IMG/VR virus record: IMGVR_UViG_2795385619_000008
Span: 14,166 to 78,165 of that record
From: a virus
Taxonomy: Duplodnaviria > Heunggongvirae > Uroviricota > Caudoviricetes
Length of the DNA: 64,000 nucleotides
Reading direction: 5' to 3' (one strand)
Shown here: positions 14,004 through 52,619 of the stretch, one piece after another
Position numbering within the stretch: position 1 is the stretch's first letter
How the letters are laid out: each line of letters begins with the position of its first letter
Translations under genes and position numbers: made by a program
The notes under the pieces: model-generated
Told to the model about the DNA's origin: nothing
Database searches by the model: none
Seen by the model: only the letters and a program-made list of their open reading frames with translations

Positions 14004-15662
14004 ATGACGATGCCGACCGGCAGCGATCCGAGTGGGTATGACCTATCTGGACATGATGGCGGTGTTGTTGGTGCGGGACTTGGCAATCTAGCTGGTCGTC
14101 AGCGGGGGCCTATTGAGGACATGCTGAAGGCGCGTGTTCAGAACACCACGTCTCTGAACAACGCATCTGATGCGATCTTCCATGGGCTCAACGCTGCGCT
14201 CGGGTTGCCACTCGCGATTCTTGAGGCCTTGATCAACAGGCTATTTCCGGGGTTGAATATTGACCTCGACGGGGGAATGGAAGCATTCCTCAACAGCCTG
14301 AAGGAAGTTCCGCTCCTCGGAGACATCGTCAAGTGGATCACTGGCGTAGCCGATGGTGGAATCGCGGAGCTCAAGCTCTGGTTCGACAACCTGAAGCAGT
14401 TCCTCGCACATATCGATTTCAACTCGCCATCGTTCAATCCGCTTGCGGCAGCGGGGATCTTCATCGATATGATTCTGGCGCCGGTTGGGAAGCTTGCGAC
14501 CCTTATTGGTGGCTTGATCTCGGGCAGTGTTATTCCCGGCCTTGATGCTTCGAAGATCGTCTCTGGTCAGTTCGCGCAGAGCATGATCAACGGTCTGGGT
14601 AGTGCACTCAGTGGCATCAACTCGATGATCAATCAGGTCATTGACATCTTCCGTGGTGTCCTTGTCACTCCGATCAACCAGGCCCTCCAGGACGTCAAAG
14701 ACTGGTGGAATGCCATCACTGGCAAGACATCGCACCTGAATGGCGAAGGTGGCTTCGATGCCTCAAAGCTGGTTGGTGAGGTGGCGAAGAGTGCCGTTGA
14801 GGGTCTGGTAGACCTGGGGAACGCTGTTGTCGGGGGCTTTCAGGCGATCACCAATGGCTGGTTCGGAGGATCGTCCGCAACGGGCTCTCCCACCGAAGTC
14901 CGAACGACCGTCGAAGCTATTAAGCAAGCCGTCATCAACGGGTACACCGTGGACACCATCACGTCATCACGCTCCTACGACAGGCCTGCCGAGAACATCA
15001 CAGAACTGTTGGTGTGTGGGATTAACGCCGGTAGCTCAGGTTTCGGTGGACAGAGTGGGAACACTTCAGCGGGTGGCGTAGGAGGCTCCGGTGGACTGAA
15101 CGGTGGGTTTCTAGCCCTCAAGTTCAACCCGGACTCGATTACTTGGCCAGTCAATGTGACGATCGGAGTCAACGGGAACGATACGTCCTTCGGTCCTTAC
15201 TTGACGCCCACTTCGGGGGCGGGTGGTGTCCAAGGCGAAATCGCTTACGAGGCAACAGCGTCAACTCCCGGCAGCGGCGGTGCGGGTGGCACCGGAGGCT
15301 ACAAGGCCGGTACGTCAGCCAACTACGGCACAGCAGGTAGAACCGGAACCGCGACGGTAGCTGCTGGCGGGGGGACCGGTGGATCTGCTTCGGCCATGCC
15401 TGCTGGTAATGGAACCGCTGGAGATTCAGTCTCCGCAGGCGCCGAAACTAAGTGTGGTGGTGCCGGTGGTGGAGGTGGTGGAGGTGGAAACCCCACCGGC
15501 ACGCTGGCACAGGCCAAGGGCGGCAATGGTGGAGCCGGAGGTTACCCCGGTGGGGGTGGCGCTGGTGGAGGCGGTGGAGCCGGATTCAGCTCCGGTAGTC
15601 AGGGCTCAGGCGGCACCGGTGGTGCCGGTGCTAGCGGCGTTCTATGGGTGTTCTGGAAGTAG
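14004..15662 (+). CDS. Glycine-rich minor tail protein.
   Basis: The C-terminal half is poly-Gly (GGAGGGGGGGGNPTG...). Confidence 0.6.
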   Translation: MTMPTGSDPSGYDLSGHDGGVVGAGLGNLAGRQRGPIEDMLKARVQNTTSLNNASDAIFHGLNAALGLPLAILEALINRLFPGLNIDLDGGMEAFLNSLKEVPLLGDIVKWITGVADGGIAELKLWFDNLKQFLAHIDFNSPSFNPLAAAGIFIDMILAPVGKLATLIGGLISGSVIPGLDASKIVSGQFAQSMINGLGSALSGINSMINQVIDIFRGVLVTPINQALQDVKDWWNAITGKTSHLNGEGGFDASKLVGEVAKSAVEGLVDLGNAVVGGFQAITNGWFGGSSATGSPTEVRTTVEAIKQAVINGYTVDTITSSRSYDRPAENITELLVCGINAGSSGFGGQSGNTSAGGVGGSGGLNGGFLALKFNPDSITWPVNVTIGVNGNDTSFGPYLTPTSGAGGVQGEIAYEATASTPGSGGAGGTGGYKAGTSANYGTAGRTGTATVAAGGGTGGSASAMPAGNGTAGDSVSAGAETKCGGAGGGGGGGGNPTGTLAQAKGGNGGAGGYPGGGGAGGGGGAGFSSGSQGSGGTGGAGASGVLWVFWK

Positions 15663-46093: not shown

Positions 46094-46160
46094 GCACTGA
46101 CTTCTCGGCGTTTGGGCCCCGGTTCCTCAGTGGATCGGGGCCCATTTTTATTCGCCAGAG

Positions 46161-46172
46161 GTTCATGTGGGT
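46161..46172 (+). promoter_or_regulatory. Motif copy GGTTCATGTGGGTAG at the entrance to the RNA island.
   Basis: Exact. Confidence 0.5.
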
Positions 46173-46227
46173 AGGTCGTAAACTGAGTTCAGCAAGAGGG
46201 GCTACCAGGGCCTGAAAATCTGGAAAT

Positions 46228-46298
46228 TCGGATGTGGTCCAGTGGCAGGACAGCGGCTTCCAAACCCGCCAACGGGAGTTCGATTCTCTCCATCCGGG
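46228..46298 (+). tRNA. tRNA-Trp (CCA).
   Basis: Hand-folded cloverleaf. Acceptor TCGGATG/CATCCGG, T-loop TTCGATT, anticodon loop TTCCAAA. Confidence 0.6.
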
Positions 46299-46353
46299 CA
46301 ATGCCTTTGTGTGGCATGACATTTGAAAACTCCATAGAGATAGTAGTTTCAAT

Positions 46354-46699
46354 GGGGCTGACAGGCATTCGATTGCGTGTCAACTTACTGAGAAGCGTGC
46401 CGGGAAGCAACGCCCGCAACAGTGCAACCTTGATAAGCGCAAACGCTCATCAGTCCGACTACGTCCTAGCGGCGTAGTCCGTTGGGGTACAACGGTTCAC
46501 CCGTTCCTTGTACCAATCCACCGTCGCCAATACGGGGAACCCTCTGGCTCACGCCGTCGCACAGAGGCTAAACGTGCTGCGGCAGAACCCTCGTATCAGG
46601 CTGCCCAGCCAAACCGGAGGTAAACGGTATAACAGGGATACGCACGTAGAAGGCAGTGAAGAGAAGCGCAAGACTGCGGTTCAATTCCGCACAGCTCCA
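46354..46699 (+). ncRNA. ssrA: tmRNA (SsrA) encoding the tag ANAHQSDYVLAA.
   Basis: 5-prime GGGGCTG pairs with 3-prime CAGCTCC-A. T-arm TGCGG-TTCAATT-CCGCA. Tag ORF GCA AAC GCT CAT CAG TCC GAC TAC GTC CTA GCG GCG TAG at 46439-46477. Confidence 0.8.
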
Positions 46700-46985
46700 C
46701 GAGAGGGAGGCCACCGGTTCGATCCTGGTCAGCTGGGGAGCGCCCTGGCTGTAGCTCAGTGGCAGAGCGCCCTCGTTAAACGACGCGTGGCCCCGGCTCG
46801 CATAACCAGAACCAAGTACGAGTAGCGCTCGGAACGGAGCGGTTCTTACGGGGAATGTGGAGAGACATCTCCGCGCGGCCATCGGGATGCCGATGGTCAT
46901 ATGGATGACAGGGTAATCCCGCAGTAGGTTCCGATAAAAAGGATCCGACCTGAGGTGCCGTACCTGGGCCGTGTCGTCCATTAAT

Positions 46986-47056
46986 CAGGCTGTAGTGAAA
47001 CGGGATCATGCCGGTTTTGGGTACCGGTGGTGGAGGTTCAATTCCTCCCAGCTTGA
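46986..47056 (+). tRNA. tRNA-Pro (TGG).
   Basis: Hand fold. Anticodon loop TTTGGGT. Confidence 0.6.
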
Positions 47057-47168
47057 CGAGAAGAGTTGTCGGTATATCTCCACGCGCAGGGAACCGTCCG
47101 TCTGATCGCGAACGATAGACGAAAATTCGCGCGCTACGCCCCCCTAGCGTCAACATGGTGGGCACCAT

Positions 47169-47241
47169 TGGCCTGTAGCTCAATTGGTAGAGCAGCGAGC
47201 TGTTAACTCGCGAGGTGTAGGTTCGACTCCTGCCAAGCCAG
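47169..47241 (+). tRNA. tRNA-Asn (GTT).
   Basis: TAGCTCAATTGGTAGAGC D-arm. Loop CTGTTAA. Confidence 0.65.
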
Positions 47242-47351
47242 CGTTGGAACGTGGTGCAAGCGTAGAGCAGCCAAGCGCGACGGCGAGTGGTGAGCACATC
47301 GGCAGTCGACGGTCGAAGATGCCAGGGAAAAGCTGTTCGTTCCTAACCAAT

Positions 47352-47428
47352 CTCGTCGCGAATAGGCGATCAACGCAGACTGTAAATCTGTTCCTTCGGG
47401 TGTGCAGGTTCGACTCCTGACGGCGAGA
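47352..47428 (+). tRNA. tRNA-Tyr (GTA).
   Basis: Loop CTGTAAA, long variable arm. Confidence 0.55.
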
Positions 47429-47507
47429 CAATGAGACTGGTGTGGAACGAACTGAAGGCTTGCGGCAAGCAGAAACGTTCCCCCGCCCGCAAGGCCAGTC
47501 TCAGCCT

Positions 47508-47580
47508 TGATGATTGGTGTAACCGGCAGCACACGTGGCTCTGAACCACGTAGGTCTTGGTTCGAATCCAGGGTCATCAG
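47508..47580 (+). tRNA. tRNA-Gln (CTG).
   Basis: Loop CTCTGAA. Confidence 0.55.
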
Positions 47581-47662
47581 CTTTTGGGTCAACCGGTAGG
47601 TACCTGCCATGAGTTGACTGTCCGGTGGCTCGCATGCCCTCCGTCACAGAAGCATGCCGCAT

Positions 47663-47747
47663 GGAAGGCTCCGCTGAATGGTCGGCAACCGGCGTCGAAT
47701 ACCGGGGCAGGCAGTGCGTCCTGGGGGTTCGAGTCCTCAGCTTTCCG
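47663..47747 (+). tRNA. tRNA-Ser (CGA).
   Basis: Long variable arm. Loop GTCGAAT. Confidence 0.45.
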
Positions 47748-47829
47748 CTCCTAAAGTCTTCCACCTGCCTGAATGGTGGCTAATCAGGTGTGCTCCAAGA
47801 TCGCGTGGACACGGCAACAGGTGGACCAA

Positions 47830-47913
47830 GGAGAGCGCAACTAGTTAGGTGACTAGGCCCGGTTGCTAACCGGATCGCTGCTCTGCAGTAGGTTTCGAAT
47901 ACCTGCCTCTCCA
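47830..47913 (+). tRNA. tRNA-Ser (GCT).
   Basis: Loop TTGCTAA, long variable arm. Confidence 0.55.
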
Positions 47914-48363
47914 CGCACCCACACGAACTCTGTTGTGGGAGATATAGTTAAGACATTCGGGGCATGGCCCATAAGCCACCGCAAGGTGGTGAAAGGTGGG
48001 GTGACAACCCACCACCCGCAAGGGCAATCCATGCAATCCAATCCTTGAGCAGTCAGTGATGGCTGCCAGGTCGTGAGTCTGCCCGTGACCGACGCCGAAT
48101 GTGGTGAGGTCAGCAGCCCGTATCGTGCGGGTGCTCCGTGGGAGTAATGCAGGGGACAGGACAAGCGGCCTGTGGAACGGAAGGAACTGAGTCCGAGCCT
48201 CGCAAGCAAGGGCGTGTTCCATGATCGATCTCGCGTCGGGCGACGGCTCGCAATGCGGTTGAGAGAGAGTGTAATTAGCCCCGCCAGGCGAAAGCACGAG
48301 AGGCGTGAAGCATTCTGTGCCACAAAAGGGTTCGGAACTTCATGGGGAAGCACGTCTTTGGTC

Positions 48364-48436
48364 AAACATCTAGCTCATTTGGTAGAGCATCTGTCGCATA
48401 AACAGTTGGTAGCCGGTTCAATTCCGGCGATGTATA
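48364..48436 (+). tRNA. tRNA-Met (CAT).
   Basis: TAGCTCATTTGGTAGAGC. Loop CGCATAA. Confidence 0.55.
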
Positions 48437-48729
48437 CAAGCAAAAGTCCTTCCCCTGCCGAGGAGCAAAAGCGCCTTAATCCCAGACCTTCGGGAATCTG
48501 GGCCGCACAATAGTCCCGCAAGGTGAGTGCGGTTTGTAGGCAAGTACTGCAGCAGTGAGACGGCCATCTCATCGCGAAGGGAAAGCCGCAGAGTAGCTTT
48601 CGGCATGACGAGTGGTTCACGGTAACGGACCAGGCGTGAGAACTAGGTCAGGGATGGCCTGGAGAAGCAGCGAATCAATAATGCTGCGAAAGGTTCTCGA
48701 TAGCGGGTGTACTCTCAGCCTCTAACAAT

Positions 48730-48803
48730 CGACTCTTAGCTCAGTTAGGTAAGAGCGACCGGTTGAAGCCCGGTGCGCCCCCGTTCGATTCGGGGAGAGT
48801 CGG
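48730..48803 (+). tRNA. tRNA-Phe (GAA).
   Basis: Perfect acceptor CGACTCT/AGAGTCG. Loop TTGAAGC. Confidence 0.65.
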
Positions 48804-48925
48804 CGTGTAAGGGAAACCAGGTTCCACAGCTACTGGTGAAAAGCTGGGCACTCCACGTAAAAGGTCGCGTTGACTCGCGCGGATACGGTAGGCGATGAAC
48901 TGTCCTACCGGAATGAGTCACTCAT

Positions 48926-49000
48926 AGCGGGTTAGAGAAGTTCGGCCATCTCGCGAGCCTCATAAGCTTGAGACCACCGGTTCAAATCCGGTACCCGCCA
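48926..49000 (+). tRNA. tRNA with anticodon CAT (Met, or Ile-lysidine). The 1:72 pair is mismatched.
   Basis: Loop CTCATAA. D-stem GAGA/TCTC. Confidence 0.55.
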
Positions 49001-49064
49001 CAGGGTCCGCTCGCCAGCAAGTCTGGTCCTGAAACCCACGGAGACGGTTAAAGAGTCGGGCAAT

Positions 49065-49139
49065 CCCGTTGTTGGGCAATGGAGCGCCCACCGCCCTACG
49101 AAGGCGCAACGCATGCAGGTTCGAATCCTGTCAACGGGT
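49065..49139 (+). tRNA. tRNA-Arg (ACG).
   Basis: Acceptor CCCGTTG/CAACGGG. Loop CTACGAA. Confidence 0.6.
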
Positions 49140-49203
49140 CTGAGCGCTGTCGGTACAAAGCCCGAACGAACAGAGATGCCATGCTGCTCTGGCCAGCGCC
49201 ATA

Positions 49204-49274
49204 CCTTGTGTAGCTCAATGGCAGAGCTCCTCGCTGTGACCGAGGTTATCGCGGTTCAACTCCGCGCATAGGGA
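49204..49274 (+). tRNA. tRNA-His (GTG).
   Basis: Loop CTGTGAC. Confidence 0.55.
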
Positions 49275-49297
49275 CGTACAGACACTGAAAGGCCAAG

Positions 49298-49462
49298 ATG
49301 ACTGACAAGCTGCGCACGGGTATCGCCCATATCGACATCGTCAAGGCGGTGAACGATCTGATCGATCGCATGGATGCTCTTGAGGGCTTCCATTACGCGG
49401 TGGATGAGAAGCCGGTGGCCAAGAAGGCTCCCGCAAAGAAGGTAGCCCCACCTGCAGAGTAG
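49298..49462 (+). CDS. Small basic protein (54 aa) embedded in the tRNA array.
   Basis: ATG preceded by GAAAGG. MTDKLRTGIAHIDIVKAV...KKAPAKKVAPPAE. Confidence 0.35.
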   Translation: MTDKLRTGIAHIDIVKAVNDLIDRMDALEGFHYAVDEKPVAKKAPAKKVAPPAE

Positions 49463-49471
49463 GTGGCATAA

Positions 49472-49543
49472 GGCGAAGTGAGTGAGTGGCTAGCTGGCAG
49501 GCTGCAACCCTGACCCACACCGGTTCGAATCCGGTCTTCGTCT
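49472..49543 (+). tRNA. tRNA-Cys (GCA).
   Basis: Loop CTGCAAC. Confidence 0.55.
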
Positions 49544-49613
49544 CCGACGCGCTCGATGGGGCTGGTGAGCCATCGTAAAGCCGACGCGTTAGACCATGAA
49601 ATATCGGCACCAT

Positions 49614-49688
49614 GCTCCGGTAGCCCAATTTGGCAGAGGCGACAGGCTTAGACCCTGGAGGTTGTGGGTTCGAATCCCTCTCGGAGTA
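49614..49688 (+). tRNA. tRNA with anticodon TAG (a Leu anticodon) but a short class-I variable arm.
   Basis: Loop CTTAGAC. Variable AGGTT. Discriminator A. Confidence 0.45.
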
Positions 49689-49757
49689 CTCGACGGGTGG
49701 CCCCCGTGAAAGGGCCTGCAGTACTTCGGTAAAGCTGCGTCATCAAACACCGAGCCT

Positions 49758-49832
49758 GGTCGGCTAGGCAAACCTGGCAAAGCCGCCGAGCTCAAACCTC
49801 GGTGTCTGCGAGTTCGATCCTCGCGCCGACTA
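49758..49832 (+). tRNA. tRNA with anticodon CAA (a Leu anticodon) but a short class-I variable arm.
   Basis: Loop CTCAAAC. Variable TGTCT. Discriminator A. Confidence 0.45.
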
Positions 49833-49833
49833 C

Positions 49834-50046
49834 GTGAACAAGTATCGCCTGACAGCTGCGGGGGTCTCATATCTTGCCTGGGGCAAGGAGCTCACCCCGG
49901 AAGGTGCTAGGGCCCTGGTTGAAGCAGAGTGCGGCGTTAGGGCCAGTGACTGTCAGCGATACCACCCAGAGCGCTCACGTGGGCGCGATGGATACAGGAA
50001 GGCGTACCCGCATGTGTGGGCAGCGTTTCCCGCGATCACAAGTTAA
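49834..50046 (+). CDS. Possible small protein gene within the tRNA array.
   Basis: GTG-start ORF of 70 aa between tRNAs. Confidence 0.25.
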   Translation: MNKYRLTAAGVSYLAWGKELTPEGARALVEAECGVRASDCQRYHPERSRGRDGYRKAYPHVWAAFPAITS

Positions 50047-50047
50047 T

Positions 50048-50118
50048 GGGCGTTGGTGAAACGGAATCACCCTAGACTTTTAATCTATGAGTTGAGGGTT
50101 CAAATCCCTTGCGCCCTA
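50048..50118 (+). tRNA. tRNA-Lys (TTT), imperfect acceptor.
   Basis: Loop CTTTTAA. Confidence 0.45.
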
Positions 50119-50119
50119 C

Positions 50120-50191
50120 GGGAGTATAGTTAAGCGGTTATAACTCTTGGCTCTTACCCATGAATCCCAGGTTCGATCCCTGGTGCTCCCA
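50120..50191 (+). tRNA. tRNA-Lys (CTT).
   Basis: Loop CTCTTAC. D-stem GTTA/TAAC. Confidence 0.55.
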
Positions 50192-50192
50192 C

Positions 50193-50264
50193 TAGCTCGT
50201 CGTCCAATGGTTAGGACACCGCTCTGATAAGGCGGAAACCAGTGTTCAACTCACTGCGGGCTTA
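50193..50264 (+). tRNA. tRNA-Ile (GAT).
   Basis: Loop CTGATAA. Confidence 0.5.
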
Positions 50265-50271
50265 CCAACTT

Positions 50272-50342
50272 ACGACTGTAACTCGGACAGACCAACGGCC
50301 TCCTAAGCCGCGTGGAAGCAGGTTCAACTCCTGTCGGTCGTG
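50272..50342 (+). tRNA. tRNA-Arg (CCT).
   Basis: Loop CTCCTAA. Confidence 0.5.
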
Positions 50343-50390
50343 CGCCAGTATGCATTTCGTACCCCTCGGGCCTACGTTCTGCATACTCAT

Positions 50391-50464
50391 GCGAGTGTGA
50401 TGTTTAACGGTTAGCATCTCTGTCTTCCAAACAGATCGTGCCAGTTCGAATCTGGTCACTCGTT
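50391..50464 (+). tRNA. tRNA-Gly (TCC).
   Basis: Loop CTTCCAA. Confidence 0.55.
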
Positions 50465-50590
50465 CGACGTCCTGGGATGGACGACCCTACGGTGGAGACT
50501 TCGGTTGTCGCCGGAAGCTTGTGCGCGGATAGAGCATCCGCCAGGGACCTCTCGCTGCAGCATTGGCACCCTCAACCAAAAGCTCGATAT

Positions 50591-50658
50591 GCCTGGTTAG
50601 TCTGGGACGAAAGCTGGCTTACATCCAGCCAAGCGGTGTTCGATTCACCGACTGGGTA
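50591..50658 (+). tRNA. tRNA-Val (TAC), short D-arm.
   Basis: Loop CTTACAT. Confidence 0.45.
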
Positions 50659-50663
50659 CGCAG

Positions 50664-50737
50664 GCCTCATTAGCTCATCCGGCTAGAGCACTTCCTTAGT
50701 AACGAAGAGGCGCGGGGTTCGAGACCTCGATGAGGCC
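50664..50737 (+). tRNA. tRNA-Thr (AGT).
   Basis: Perfect acceptor GCCTCAT/ATGAGGC. Loop TTAGTAA. Confidence 0.55.
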
Positions 50738-50976
50738 CGACGTTCAGTCTTTCTGCATGTTCAGCTTTGTTGAACAGCAGGGGGATTGAACACTTGGGGG
50801 CGCATGTTCCAAGGTGGCGACCGATCCTTGCAAGATTGGTGTGGTCGCGTTCAATTCGCACCGTCTCCACGGGAGTTTTGGCCAAGCAGCTCCAGGGTTT
50901 GATTCCCAGAAAGTTGGCTCAGGTTGTTCGTACCTGCCCCAGTGGCCTCGAAAACCGCTGGGGGTAAACGTCCTAA

Positions 50977-51049
50977 GCACGTGTAGCTCAATCGGGAGAG
51001 CGCCACCCTGTCAAGGTGGAGGCAGCGGGATCAAAACCCGCCACGGGCG
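50977..51049 (+). tRNA. tRNA-Asp (GTC) with a non-canonical T-loop ATCAAAA.
   Basis: Loop CTGTCAA. Confidence 0.55.
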
Positions 51050-51050
51050 C

Positions 51051-51389
51051 GTGAGTAGAGAACTAGTGCTGTCAGTGACCCTGAAGGATTGTCGTGTAGA
51101 CACATTCCGATCAGGTGGCAAGGGTGGCCAGAACCAGAACAAGCGCGAGACGGGTGTGCGGATTACGCACGAGCCATCTGGTGCGATTGGTGAGTCGCGC
51201 GAGGAGCGTAGTCAGCTTCAGAACAAGCAGGCTGCGTTTCGTCGAATGGCGGGCTCACCGAAGTTCCAGCTCTGGGTGAAGCGTCAAGTCGGTCGTGATG
51301 ACCTGCAGAAGGCCCAGGTGGAGCGCGATATGTGGCCGGTGAACCTCAAGACCGAGGTTCGCGAGTCCGGCAAATGGGTTGAGCAGTAA
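51051..51389 (+). CDS. GGQ-motif peptidyl-tRNA hydrolase domain protein (stand-alone class-I release-factor catalytic domain, ArfB/PrfH-like).
   Basis: DCRVDTFRSGGKGGQNQNKRETGVRITHEPSGAIGESREERSQLQNKQ matches release-factor domain 3. GTG start 2 nt after tRNA-Asp. Confidence 0.65.
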   Translation: MSRELVLSVTLKDCRVDTFRSGGKGGQNQNKRETGVRITHEPSGAIGESREERSQLQNKQAAFRRMAGSPKFQLWVKRQVGRDDLQKAQVERDMWPVNLKTEVRESGKWVEQ

Positions 51390-51430
51390 CCCGTTCGATG
51401 TTCGGTATTGACCGCACAGCGAACACTCAA

Positions 51431-51501
51431 GGTCCATTGGTGTAGTGAGAGCACACCACCCTCTCAAGGTGTTGGTGCGGGTTTGATTCCCGCATGGACT
51501 A
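51431..51501 (+). tRNA. tRNA-Glu (CTC).
   Basis: Loop CTCTCAA. T-loop TTTGATT. Confidence 0.55.
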
Positions 51502-51505
51502 CTCG

Positions 51506-51548
51506 GAAGGCCCTCAGCGCAAGCTGGGGGCCTTTTTCGTACCCACAT
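51506..51548 (+). terminator. Rho-independent terminator closing the RNA island.
   Basis: Hairpin CCCTCAGC-GCAA-GCTGGGGG followed by CCTTTTTCGT. Confidence 0.55.
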
Positions 51549-51552
51549 GAAC
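51541..51552 (-). promoter_or_regulatory. Motif copy ACCCACATGAAC. Its ATG opens an 11-codon leader (MNPKALNTIGT) whose TGA overlaps the ATG at 51579.
   Basis: Exact 12-mer. Confidence 0.45.
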
Positions 51553-51578
51553 CCCAAAGCTCTCAATACCATTGGTAC

Positions 51579-51692
51579 ATGAAGGAATTCAGGAAGCACC
51601 TCTGCATCGCGATCTTCGCTCTCACTGTCATTGACGCCGTGCTGTCGGTGCTCGAGCTGATTGATGCCATCAAGCAGGGACGTGACGCATGA
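51579..51692 (+). CDS. Small membrane protein of 37 aa.
   Basis: Hydrophobic ORF. Confidence 0.3.
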   Translation: MKEFRKHLCIAIFALTVIDAVLSVLELIDAIKQGRDA

Positions 51693-51988
51693 GCGCCAAT
51701 CCCTATGACTTCGAGAAGATTCCGACCGTCACGTCAGAGATGATCCGATTCGCACGGGACATCATGTGGCGTGGTGTTTCGTCTGGCCCATCTAGTCCCG
51801 GTACGAGCCTGATCAATGAGGTCGTGCTCTGGCTCGAAGAGCGTGCTGCGAGTTACCAGGCAGTTGAAGAGCAGGAAGCTGTCGAGAGGGCCTTCATCGA
51901 CGCCGTGGAAGAAGAGGTCGGACAGGGCTGGACGTATCCAGGCGCGATCCGGAAGGTTCTTTCTACCCACAAACTGGAGAAGTTGTGA
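51689..51988 (+). CDS. Hypothetical protein.
   Basis: ATGA overlap. Confidence 0.4.
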   Translation: MSANPYDFEKIPTVTSEMIRFARDIMWRGVSSGPSSPGTSLINEVVLWLEERAASYQAVEEQEAVERAFIDAVEEEVGQGWTYPGAIRKVLSTHKLEKL

Positions 51989-52082
51989 AGCGCCTGGACG
52001 ATTGGGCCTGGTACGTGTCACTCGCCATGGGTGGGTTCGTGATCATCCTGGTCCTGCTCTTCCCGGTTCTGATGGAGCTGAG

Positions 52083-52619
52083 GTGGGGGCATTGAGCGAG
52101 GCTGACCGCGTGAGTCGCCGTGTGCTTGTCACTGGTAGCCGCGACTGGCCGGACCCGAAGCCGGTTATCTACGCCCTCAACAGCCAGTGGCTCAAGGCGC
52201 ACAAGAAGGGCGAGAAGCTCGTTGTTGTGCAAGGGGAGTGTCCCAAGGGTGCTGATCTCTTCGCTGCCGAGTGGGCCCAGTTCCGCGAGGATCGCGGTTG
52301 CCGCGTCAAGAATGAGTCGCATCCCGCAGATTGGGATCGCGACTGTGACTACCACTGCACCCATCCACCTCGGTGGAAGTGGGGTAAGCCGTACTGTCCG
52401 CTCGCTGGACATCTACGCAACCAGGCGATGGTGGACCTTGGCGCTGACATCTGCATTGCATTCCCACTGAAGGACTCTCGGGGTACTTGGGACTGCATGA
52501 AGCGCGCTAAGAAGGCTGGAATCTCCGTCATCAACTTCGGGTACGACGGGCCCCTGTGCGCTCCCTGGATCGACTATCACATTGATCCACATACAGGTCC
52601 GTGTGCACGTGCCCGCTGA
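52083..52619 (+). CDS. Rossmann-fold SLOG/DUF2493-like (DprA/Smf-related) protein with a C-terminal Cys/His cluster.
   Basis: RVLVTGSRDW...VVVQGECPKGADLFAAEWA. GTG start. Confidence 0.45.
   Translation: MGALSEADRVSRRVLVTGSRDWPDPKPVIYALNSQWLKAHKKGEKLVVVQGECPKGADLFAAEWAQFREDRGCRVKNESHPADWDRDCDYHCTHPPRWKWGKPYCPLAGHLRNQAMVDLGADICIAFPLKDSRGTWDCMKRAKKAGISVINFGYDGPLCAPWIDYHIDPHTGPCARAR

Follow-up and report, generated by a model that had tools for sequence, protein, structure and literature searches.

The window analysed here, a 64,000-nucleotide stretch of a Caudoviricetes genome (IMG/VR record IMGVR_UViG_2795385619_000008, positions 14,166 to 78,165), very probably codes on its plus strand, judging from sequence comparisons, for one GOLLD RNA of ~770 nt at positions 47953-48721. 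With equally high confidence we place the element in the tRNA/tmRNA array of a cluster-M-like Mycobacterium (abscessus-type) prophage. A sequence-only reading had singled out positions 47914-48363 within this array as a candidate structured non-tRNA RNA of about 450 nt, possibly a novel one. That stretch is not new and makes up the 5′ half of the large phage non-coding RNA GOLLD. It consists of a 38-nt lineage-specific leader, the whole GOLLD 5′ domain and the first hairpin of the 3′ domain, and the full RNA runs on through an embedded tRNA-like element. The broader proposal, that the tRNA array harbors a conserved, structured, non-tRNA and non-coding phage RNA, is borne out by covariation in relatives, the test that the same reading had named. 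GOLLD RNA is reportedly the subject of Weinberg et al. 2009, and the GOLLD of Mycobacterium tRNA arrays is said to be treated in Morgado et al. 2020 (RNA Biol 17:1001).

The 3′ domain belongs to the GOLLD family: cmscan against Rfam matched RF02032 (GOLLD) to 48298-48721 with a score of 191.6 bits (E = 1.9e-52; the gathering score is 150), and the alignment covers all 416 model positions (1-416). The match overlaps only the last 66 nt of the flagged stretch, continues across the gene called tRNA-Met, and is preceded by a 345-nt block, which gives 769 nt in total from 47953 to 48721. Of the ~800-nt GOLLD RNA, the public RF02032 model represents the conserved 3′ half alone, and it is because of this restriction to the back half that the 5′ half had appeared unexplained.

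The element lies in an array that has a tmRNA and, with default thresholds, 20 tRNAs, to which a relaxed threshold adds at least 4; the records nearest to the window are Mycobacterium phages of the Mclasvirinae. Both tRNAs said to flank the stretch are present. Upstream is a divergent type-II tRNA-Ser(GCT) at 47830-47914, found by ARAGORN at the relaxed threshold only, whose Bongo orthologue is annotated tRNA-Ser(gct), and downstream is the Met-like tRNA at 48364-48437. No tRNA was found in 47915-48363 by ARAGORN (default, ps90 and ps80) or by the Rfam tRNA model, as had been claimed. The leader (47915-47952) contains a small hairpin (47918-47939; fold z-score −1.37) and is outside the conserved GOLLD core; it is 92-100% identical in M. 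abscessus-type prophages and missing from Bongo, in which the core directly adjoins tRNA-Asn. The downstream boundary of the element is tRNA-Phe(gaa) at 48730-48804, which starts 8 nt past the GOLLD 3′ end.

The 5′ block is constantly linked to the GOLLD 3′ domain. RF02032 matched all 17 relatives that were compared (cluster-M mycobacteriophages and prophages, 11 from the phage database and 6 from IMG/VR), and in 18 of 18 sequences, counting the window, the match is immediately preceded by a block of 329-345 nt. Its position is constant despite differing upstream tRNAs (tRNA-Ser in the window, tRNA-Asn in Bongo). Identity is 86-89% with the M. abscessus prophages prophi86-1, prophiGD54-2 and prophiT49-2, and ~73% with Bongo and PegLeg.

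The block is also homologous to the 5′ ends of other Rfam-confirmed GOLLDs. A covariance model (R1) built on 47955-48040, approximately the first 87 nt, and its cluster-M orthologues matched 10 unrelated viral contigs, always on the same strand; these contigs had been retrieved through the GOLLD 3′-end motif alone. The R1 match is 733-877 nt upstream of that motif in the nine contigs with both mapped, and 329-393 nt upstream of the Rfam GOLLD match in the eight with an Rfam-confirmed, untruncated 3′ domain. On these matches 98.2% of cells are paired (~40% in slid controls), a fraction inflated by the fitting of the alignment to the model; compensatory changes occur in 17 of the 20 pairs of this fitted alignment. 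With filters off, R1 did not detect the 5′ module where it would be expected in the lake-type GOLLDs L050, L060 and L038 and gave a weak match in L031. The 5′ domain of the window has no detectable sequence similarity to the 5′ ends of lake-type GOLLDs. A degenerate 5′ motif, TTYGRGGYATGGCYCATARG, gave seven matches in genome contigs of unrelated phyla, which we rejected as chance: none came with a GOLLD match, and ~35 chance matches are expected in 596 Gb. A motif filter intended to tell true GOLLDs from 15-mer matches due to chance proved too strict, as it passed only 2 of 10 verified loci, and Rfam was run on a sample instead.

It is improbable that the 5′ block is a separate, undescribed phage RNA of ~350-450 nt that sits next to GOLLD or is freed from it by excision of the tRNA-like module. 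This reading draws on the failure of the Rfam model to extend over the block and on the intervening cloverleaf, which could serve as a substrate for RNase P and RNase Z, yet it must contend with the fixed position and spacing of the block upstream of Rfam-confirmed 3′ domains, which hold for 17 relatives as well as for 8 unrelated contigs. Moreover, no promoter-like or terminator-like site was found between the block and the 3′ domain. Nor can excision be general, since the module is without its 3′ acceptor strand in Bongo, Reindeer, MrMagoo and Aziz and the linker of Nanosmite is without any tRNA-like element; the pseudo-tRNA product was not detected in M. aubagnense (PMC6582537). If RNase P and RNase Z did excise the module, the GOLLD molecule would be split in two.

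The module itself, called tRNA-Met(cat) by ARAGORN and scoring 47.6 bits with the Rfam tRNA model, occupies the variable linker of GOLLD at 48364-48437, which corresponds to RF02032 model positions ~66-140, after the first 3′-domain hairpin. It has several oddities as a tRNA (A.A at 2-71, G33, and no encoded CCA). Relatives carry tRNA-like elements at the equivalent linker position with very different anticodons (cat, tag, gga, atg, ata, att, tat and others).

The structure of the 5′ domain (345 nt, 47953-48297), the conserved block directly upstream of the Rfam match, is backed by covariation. In the 18-sequence alignment RNAalifold gives a consensus of 73 pairs, 26 of them with compensatory changes. 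The best-defined part is a 5′ module at 47955-48040, the region of the R1 model, in which a 5′ hairpin is followed by three hairpins enclosed by GCAUGG and CCAUGC. The 5′ hairpin, GGG-GCAUGG-CCC (47959-47970), has a covarying local stem, and its entire 6-nt loop (47962-47967) pairs with the distal strand CCAUGC at 48029-48034, 6 of 6 pairs forming in all 14 unique sequences; the local stem and the loop-to-distal pairing each covary in this set. Hairpin A (GCCACC-GCAA-GGUGGU, 47975-47990) shows compensatory changes in 4 of its 6 pairs within cluster M and in all 6 once distant GOLLDs are included, and its loop is always GNRA (GCAA, GUGA, GAGA or GUAA). Hairpin B (GGUGGG-GUGACAA-CCCACC, 47995-48013), with a 7-nt loop and a conserved GUGAC, has compensatory changes both in cluster M and in distant GOLLDs. 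Hairpin C (CCC-GCAA-GGG, 48015-48024) does not vary across cluster M, save for a GUGA loop in Nanosmite, and 3 of its 3 pairs covary when distant GOLLDs are added. An RNAalifold 'closing' helix, 47958-47961 with 48280-48283, was rejected, as it clashes with the local GGG/CCC stem, which covaries perfectly in cluster M and distant GOLLDs.

Downstream of the module, the central region (48041-48175) is variable, with 9-18% invariant columns in 7 lineages, some compensatory changes in long-range helices and a 14-nt insert (48134-48147) specific to this window. It includes a GNRA hairpin that had been overlooked, GCAGUCA-GUGA-UGGCUGC (GCAGTCA-GTGA-TGGCTGC in the DNA) at 48049-48066. A second 5′ motif follows at 48179-48220, where GUCCGAG...AAGGGC is set inside GGAA...UUCC; 46% of its columns are invariant and its local helices covary. 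It occurs in 6 of 11 distant GOLLDs at an offset of 232-283, against a background of one per 27 kb. Hairpin D (CGGGC-GACG-GCUCG, 48237-48250) has a covarying stem (GC, AU, UA, UG) and a conserved loop.

All the motifs quoted in the sequence-only reading are present: CCACCGCAAGGTGG at 47976-47989, GGTGGGGTGACAACCCACC at 47995-48013, CCCGCAAGGG at 48015-48024, GCGAAAGC at 48288-48295, GAGTCCGAGCC at 48189-48199, within the second motif, and GGTTCGGAACTTCA at 48329-48342. The first three of the quoted hairpins are backed by compensatory changes. The description of four GNRA-capped hairpins holds for two, which have a GNRA tetraloop on a stem of at least 3 bp; the GGTGGG/CCCACC loop is 7 nt long, and GC-GAAA-GC has a stem of only 2 bp and is not retained in Rey, MrMagoo and Aziz.

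A long-range, P4-like helix between GAGUCCGAGCC and GGUUCGGAACUUCA had been taken as faintly reminiscent of RNase P RNA, and a ribozyme of that kind or its remnant, held by this helix, is a reading to which we give next to no credence. The segments are complementary in the window (8+3 possible pairs), and across cluster M 91.9% of cells can pair, against at most 63% in slid controls. However, the pairing shows zero compensatory changes and conflicts with better-supported local helices. Position 48194 varies among C, G, A and U against an invariant partner, whereas locally it pairs with 48210 as C-G, G-C or U-G. The changes of Bongo in the 3′ strand are compensated within the local Rfam hairpin, and distant GOLLDs such as L143 keep the 5′ motif while the sequence of the 3′ hairpin differs. 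Bacterial RNase P RNA is likewise a large structured RNA with GNRA loops, long-range helices and a functional tie to tRNA clusters, but no RNase P family matched at E ≤ 1 in an Rfam scan of 46200-51700, and no conserved P4 or catalytic-core sequence was identified here. The local hairpin in question, which includes GGTTCGGAACTTCA, is the first of the GOLLD 3′ domain (48298-48362, Rfam model positions 1-65 in the cmscan alignment), with 80% invariant columns. Within its stem RNAalifold drew a small CUUC/GAAG hairpin that disagrees with the Rfam structure; the columns do not vary, and the Rfam pairing was retained.

Several relatives are annotated with small proteins in this region (PegLeg gp94, Reindeer gp95, Estes gp105, Rey gp107 and Aziz gp105), and we consider it extremely unlikely that the stretch encodes any. 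Open frames do exist, including minus-strand ORFs of 170 and 143 aa in the window, and 'hypothetical protein' CDSs overlap the orthologous blocks in relatives, yet conserved coding capacity is absent. The longest open frame switches strand and frame among close relatives, no ORF is conserved, and the indels (1, 2, 4, 5, 11 and 14 nt) are mostly not multiples of three. The ORFs have no match in Pfam or PHROGs, and substitutions track the RNA pairing.

From the single sequence the structural signal is modest to weak; what decides the matter is the comparison with other sequences. The single sequence has 2 GNRA hairpins whose stems are 5 bp or longer, where 0.16 would be expected (P = 0.01), and 3 when stems down to 3 bp are counted, where 1.16 would be expected (P = 0.10); the folding-energy z-score is −1.51 on the plus strand and +1.29 on the minus strand. 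Although these modest values, that P of 0.10 and the tRNA fragments present in the array could suggest a non-functional spacer or decayed tRNA genes with chance hairpins in G+C-rich DNA, the conservation of the block with compensatory changes among phages ~73% identical and in unrelated metagenomic viruses leaves this reading a negligible probability.

Four other spacers of the array had been listed as similarly unexplained. The one at 48437-48729 is the GOLLD 3′ domain, and the one at 50738-50976 holds a divergent tRNA-Ala(tgc) at 50796-50870. Part of a third (46855-46985) is unusually stable (z = −3.28) and conserved in close relatives only, and the fourth (47430-47507) forms a stable stem-loop (z = −2.27).

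The identification as GOLLD agrees with what is known of the family. The 3′ domain scores above the curated threshold, the total length is within ~770-810 nt, the layout is in two domains with a variable linker after the first 3′-domain hairpin that holds a tRNA-like element, and the setting is a phage or prophage beside tRNAs and a tmRNA. Beyond the linker, the 3′ domain continues at 48438-48721 in agreement with RF02032 and includes the Rfam-annotated pseudoknot (L20 with J13/15), whose 5′ strand at 48456-48466 pairs with the 3′ strand at 48596-48605; 10 of 10 model pairs form in the cmscan alignment. The GOLLD of the window falls in a lower-scoring subclass (156-262 bits) in which the linker tRNA-like module is nearly always present. 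It shares with the Mycobacterium and cluster-M GOLLDs both the element and its context (tRNA cluster, HNH endonuclease, tmRNA and internal pseudo-tRNA), and differs from the other Mycobacterium copies by its own Met-like (cat) linker module and its 14-nt insert. Another large, structured RNA of phages, ROOL, likewise occurs close to tRNA islands and assembles into a homo-oligomeric cage whose internal linker is disordered, but its sequence and fold are unrelated, and Rfam gave no ROOL match in the window.

The suggestion of a novel RNA is thus overtaken both by the RF02032 match to the adjoining part and by earlier publication of GOLLD for Mycobacterium tRNA arrays and cluster-M phages. In Mycobacterium tRNA clusters, GOLLD has been reported with a northern signal (M. 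aubagnense) and an internal pseudo-tRNA (Behra et al. 2019, PMC6582537), and the published GOLLD alignment, which comprises the ~414-nt 3′ part, includes the 3′ ends of Bongo, PegLeg, Reindeer and Aziz (Kretsch et al. 2025, PMC12286853, supplementary). The boundaries and structure of the 5′ domain are not in Behra 2019 or in the Kretsch 2025 alignment. The new points are minor ones: a signature of the 5′-domain subclass, the doubly covarying pairing of the 5′-hairpin loop, and a tRNA-like module in the linker whose anticodon is unconstrained.

No promoter-like or terminator-like site was found within the array, which suggests that GOLLD would be made within a polycistronic tRNA-array transcript. 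Its ends may be set by RNase P and 3′-end processing of the flanking tRNA-Ser and tRNA-Phe. According to the literature, the GOLLD level rises during phage lysis. Cryo-EM of GOLLD env-38, the sole member so known, revealed a homo-14-mer cage (Kretsch et al. 2025, PMC12286853). By extrapolation from this one distant family member, the RNA of the window probably forms a 14-mer cage too. On the env-38 analogy, 14 copies would assemble into a hollow cage of D7 symmetry, with the 5′ domains in the two caps, the 3′ domains in the rings, and the linker with its tRNA-like module facing the interior. A-minor contacts might be contributed by GNRA loops and A-rich junctions such as AUAAG and UGAAAG. Compared by eye, env-38 has the same 5′ order (hairpin, A-rich linker, GNRA hairpin, (U/A)AAAG linker, hairpin with a 7-10-nt loop, GNRA hairpin), whereas its 5′ domain is ~420 nt long and that of the window ~345 nt. 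The GNRA loop of hairpin A would be the positional equivalent of the env-38 GAAA loop (A34/A35), which makes intermolecular bridge B1.

The Rfam pseudoknot pairing is intermolecular bridge B7 in env-38 (PMC12286853). Since this L20-J13/15 'pseudoknot', predicted by covariation, proved to be intermolecular, the pairing between the 5′-hairpin loop and 48029-48034 could likewise act between molecules, as a loop-to-strand bridge by which protomers are strung together in the cage cap, instead of forming an intramolecular pseudoknot. When the env-38 P1 loop was paired by hand with a distal strand, only 4 pairs were possible. In the linker module the body is kept while the anticodon is free to drift, a pattern that would be in keeping with a structural handle, cargo or decoy (for example for tRNA-binding or tRNA-cleaving host factors) and not a decoding tRNA. 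Taken jointly, the bridge and the linker module in such a role are a tentative proposal, which we regard as rather unlikely.

The main value of these results is a correction of annotation. Rfam-based scans see only the 3′ half of GOLLD, so that ~350-420 nt of highly structured RNA upstream seem unexplained, and several deposited cluster-M phage genomes annotate the 5′ stretch as small hypothetical proteins. The ~87-nt 5′ module together with GUCCGAG...AAGGGC gives a workable signature by which full-length members of this GOLLD subclass can be recognized, and could seed a covariance model of the 5′ domain. Cluster-M mycobacteriophages are genetically tractable, with M. smegmatis hosts and many sequenced relatives, and their natural linker variants (a full tRNA-like module, one without the 3′ acceptor strand, or none) offer a possible means of testing the role of the cage and of its tRNA-like insert.

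A scan with all Rfam families returned a single strong non-tRNA match, GOLLD (RF02032), a large phage non-coding RNA. The match, at 48298-48721, reaches 191.6 bits, above the gathering score of 150 (E = 1.9e-52), and covers 416 of 416 model positions. Its first hairpin (48298-48362, including the motif GGTTCGGAACTTCA) corresponds to the last 66 nt of 47914-48363, which the sequence-only reading had proposed as a novel structured RNA within a tRNA array. A Met-like tRNA at 48364-48437 falls within the unstructured linker of the model, and the RF02032 pseudoknot (48456-48466 with 48596-48605) forms 10 of 10 pairs. In env-38, the GOLLD with a cryo-EM structure, residues 1-420 are described as the 5′ domain and 421-833 as the 3′ domain, with a disordered linker (497-538) that holds tRNAs in some cases (Kretsch et al. 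2025, PMC12286853). The supplementary alignment of that study uses 'GOLLD_env-38_3end'. The public model therefore spans only the 3′ half, and the 5′ domain is expected in the unexplained stretch upstream. We conclude that 47914-48363, a real and conserved structured RNA, is the 5′ half of a known GOLLD RNA: the proposal of a structured RNA was right, but that of a novel one was not.

Taken on its own, the window sequence gives modest evidence of structure. All motifs quoted in the sequence-only reading are present where it placed them. GNRA-capped hairpins whose stems reach 5 bp or more are in excess (2 observed, 0.16 expected, P = 0.01); when stems of 3 bp or more are counted, the figures are 3 and 1.16 (P = 0.10). 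The folding energy of the plus strand has z = −1.51, with 8 of 100 shuffles folding equally well, and that of the minus strand z = +1.29.

Based on BLAST against phage records, the window groups with cluster-M-type Mycobacterium phages (Vilmaviridae, Mclasvirinae). Identity is 86-89% to the M. abscessus prophages prophi86-1, prophiGD54-2 and prophiT49-2, and about 70-79% to Bongo, PegLeg, Reindeer, Nanosmite, Estes, Rey, MrMagoo and Aziz. RF02032 matches all 11 fetched loci and six further IMG/VR contigs at 182-216 bits. Each of the 18 sequences has a conserved 329-345-nt block (47953-48297 in the window) that starts with GRGGYATGGCYCATARG (R = A/G, Y = C/T) and ends exactly at the Rfam match. 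Its 5′ neighbour is tRNA-Ser plus a 38-nt leader in the window versus an abutting tRNA-Asn in Bongo; since the neighbour varies by lineage, the block moves with GOLLD and not with any particular tRNA.

Covariation among the relatives, a check named in the sequence-only reading, bears out the structure of this block. For the 18 sequences RNAalifold predicts 73 pairs, 26 of them with compensatory double changes. The first hairpin, CCACC-GCAA-GGUGG, becomes CUGAG-GUGA-CUCAG, CCAGG-GAGA-CCUGG or UCGGG-GAGA-CCCGG, always keeping a GNRA loop; the second, with a 7-nt loop, covaries too, and the third is CCC-GCAA-GGG across cluster M with the sole exception of Nanosmite (loop GUGA). A pairing of GCAUGG (47962-67) with CCAUGC (48029-34) encloses all three. 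Conservation, computed over seven lineages, is patchy: 57% of columns are invariant in module 1 (47953-48040), 9% and 18% in the variable regions 48041-48075 and 48076-48175, 46% in a second motif (motif 2, 48176-48225), 17% in 48226-48297 and 80% in the first 3′-domain hairpin (48298-48362). A 14-nt insert at 48134-48147 is private to the window. Among 14 unique sequences, the 5′-terminal hairpin (47959-47970) covaries both in its 3-5-bp stem and in the pairing of all six loop nucleotides with the strand 60 nt downstream (48029-48034). This loop-to-distal pairing could be either a tight pseudoknot or an intermolecular bridge between protomers; in env-38, the predicted L20-J13/15 pairing proved to be an intermolecular bridge, a precedent for the 5′ loop pairing.

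The same domain occurs in more distant GOLLDs. We built R1, a covariance model of module 1 (47955-48040; 87 positions, 20 pairs), from ten distinct cluster-M sequences and searched viral contigs fetched solely through the GOLLD 3′-terminal motif GGTGTANTCTCAGCC. Ten contigs match at E values of 4e-10 to 0.28 (L086, L059, L143, L076, L052, L090, L047, L056, L117 and L102), as does the more distant L015, which came from a metagenome, was fetched with another motif and has no copy of GGTGTANTCTCAGCC. Wherever the 3′-terminal motif is present, the R1 match shares its strand. The distance from R1 start to motif end is 825-877 nt across nine of the ten contigs; in L143, whose linker lacks a tRNA-like element, it is 733 nt. 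The Rfam GOLLD 3′ domain is confirmed in eight R1-matched contigs, starting 329-393 nt past the R1 start (343 in the window). In the aligned matches 98.2% of cells are paired, with the caveat that the alignment was fitted to the model, and compensatory changes occur at 17 of the 20 pairs; controls with partners slid by 1-3 columns are 37-43% paired. Of 11 distant GOLLDs, 6 carry the core of motif 2, GUYNGAR...ARGGC (48191-48213 in the window, including GAGTCCGAGCC), at an offset of 232-283 from the R1 start, against a background of one match per 27 kb. R1 had no match, even with filters off, in the lake-type GOLLDs L050, L060 and L038, which have very high Rfam scores; the window-type 5′ domain thus defines a subclass, which fits the published description of the GOLLD 5′ region as less conserved (Kretsch et al.). 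L031 has a weak R1 match in the expected place.

The sequence-only reading had also seen a P4-like pairing faintly reminiscent of RNase P RNA. This helix is formable in 91.9% of cluster-M cells, with zero compensatory changes. Position 48194 is C, G, A or U against an invariant P4-like partner, and pairs locally with 48210 as C-G, G-C or U-G (A·C mismatch in three sequences). Substitutions in the P4-like 3′ strand of Bongo are compensated within the local Rfam hairpin, and distant GOLLDs such as L143 retain the 5′ motif with a different 3′ hairpin sequence. The Rfam scan listed no RNase P family at E ≤ 1. We do not regard the element as RNase P-like, and the complementarity most likely arose by coincidence or is at most a lineage-specific tertiary contact.

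A protein-coding block might be argued from two minus-strand ORFs in the window (170 and 143 aa) and from 38-47-aa 'hypothetical proteins' annotated within the orthologous block of several relatives (PegLeg gp94, L005 1172-1315; Reindeer gp95, L007 1174-1317; Estes gp105, L008 973-1089; Rey gp107, L009 887-1030; Aziz gp105, L011 1073-1201). It is rejected by the longest open frame, which differs in strand and frame between close relatives, by indels mostly of 1, 2, 4, 5, 11 or 14 nt, and by the lack of Pfam or PHROGs matches for the ORFs. As the frames are not conserved, these annotations within the GOLLD 5′ domain are probably errors.

The linker tRNA-like module (48364-48437) has G33, lacks an encoded CCA and is mismatched (A·A) at 2-71. 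Orthologous bodies carry the anticodons cat (window), tag (Estes) and gga (Rey); we compared the window module with those at L001 3164-3237, L008 1174-1245, L009 1086-1157 and L012 2206-2276. Linker anticodons in other GOLLDs (L086, L076, L052, L090, L047, L056, L117, L102 and L015 were compared) are the A34 anticodons atg, ata and att, together with tat, tct, ttg, tga and agg. One linker module gives only a 2-nt 'tg' call. Bongo-type copies have no 3′ acceptor strand, and Nanosmite keeps only a hairpin. The position of the module is kept, as are the acceptor and D arms among orthologues, and the anticodon is unconstrained and often abnormal. These features suggest that the module serves as a structural element or decoy and not as an ordinary decoding tRNA.

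Compared by eye, the elements at the env-38 5′ end follow the order seen in the window 5′ domain: hairpin, A-rich linker, GNRA hairpin (UAC-GAAA-GUA), GAUAAAG linker, 10-nt-loop hairpin and GNRA hairpin (GUAA). In env-38 the B1 contact, A34 and A35 of the first GNRA loop, is described as the sole 5′-to-3′-domain bridge between chains (Kretsch et al.). Judging from position only, CCACC-GCAA-GGUGG may be its equivalent. By analogy with env-38, 14 GOLLD copies would form a D7 cage, with 5′ domains as caps, 3′ domains as rings and the linker facing inwards. A consensus scan of plus strand 46144-52500 found no terminator-like site and only one promoter-like site, 5′ of the tmRNA, so GOLLD is probably co-transcribed with the tRNAs of the array. 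It would be released by processing of tRNA-Ser (41 nt 5′ of module 1) and tRNA-Phe (8 nt 3′). GOLLD expression is reported to rise during phage lysis in Lactobacillus; for M. aubagnense, PMC6582537 describes a weak GOLLD northern signal and no pseudo-tRNA product.

The array itself is dense and on one strand, with a tmRNA (46354-46700) and 20 tRNAs within 46228-51502 at ARAGORN default settings. The tmRNA heads the array, preceded by a promoter-like site (46316-46344), and encodes the tag peptide ANAHQSDYVLAA; tags in relatives differ (AASAQSDYALAA and AAFVAADYAVGA). Relaxed thresholds recover the divergent tRNA-Tyr(gta) (47352-47429), tRNA-Ser(cga) (47663-47748), tRNA-Ser(gct) (47830-47914) and tRNA-Ala(tgc) (50796-50870), and a candidate at 50272-50342 scores 28.9 bits, just below the Rfam tRNA cut-off of 29. 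ARAGORN confirms tRNA-Ser(gct) and the Met-like tRNA as flanks of 47914-48363, and no tRNA is callable between them at any ARAGORN threshold or by Rfam. Since default thresholds miss divergent tRNAs, several other spacers that had seemed structured and unexplained are cryptic tRNAs; 50738-50976 contains the tRNA-Ala. Spacer 48437-48729 is indeed structured but is explained as the remainder of GOLLD. Part of 46756-46985 stands as a candidate: 46855-46985, about 130 nt just 5′ of tRNA-Pro, folds with unusual stability (z = −3.28, 0 of 200 shuffles) and has three strong hairpins, one being GGCCAUCGG-GAUG-CCGAUGGUC. It has no Rfam match. Conservation is confined to M. abscessus-type prophages, with a few compensatory changes, and Bongo- and Rey-type phages showed no copy. 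Between tRNA-Tyr and tRNA-Gln, a 78-nt stem-loop (47430-47507, z = −2.27) has a core (47433-47505) of which 70-73 nt are 100% identical in five relatives, with flanks at about 85-90%; a 24-nt core is present in Reindeer too.

After the tmRNA, 46752-46779 (GCTGTAGCTCAGTGGCAGAGCGCCCTCGTT) resembles the front of a tRNA, from the acceptor strand through the D arm to the beginning of the anticodon stem. The same fragment lies directly 5′ of GOLLD in Rey-type phages (L008 738-765, with equivalents in Rey, MrMagoo, Aziz and Reindeer), and has the look of a tRNA copy that decayed, or of a recombination scar. A small ORF in the array (49296-49463, start MTDKLRTGIAHIDIV) has its counterpart in prophi86-1 gp122, annotated as a hypothetical protein; at the DNA level, conservation among relatives is about 88%. 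For the 380-nt gap between tRNA-Asp and tRNA-Glu (51051-51430), two IMG/VR relatives show 85-87% conservation.

GOLLD has been published in Mycobacterium tRNA clusters, namely in M. aubagnense, in M. abscessus M24 and in M. conceptionense (PMC6582537, PMC9569102; also Morgado et al. 2020, as cited by later papers), and Bongo, PegLeg, Reindeer and Aziz feature in the Kretsch supplementary alignment. We therefore count the element as already known. Our additions are small: 5′-domain boundaries and a covariation-supported module map for the subclass, absent from Rfam and from that alignment, the doubly covarying 5′-terminal hairpin, and the pattern of the linker tRNA-like module. The value of the result lies in a fixed annotation and a few testable structural details.
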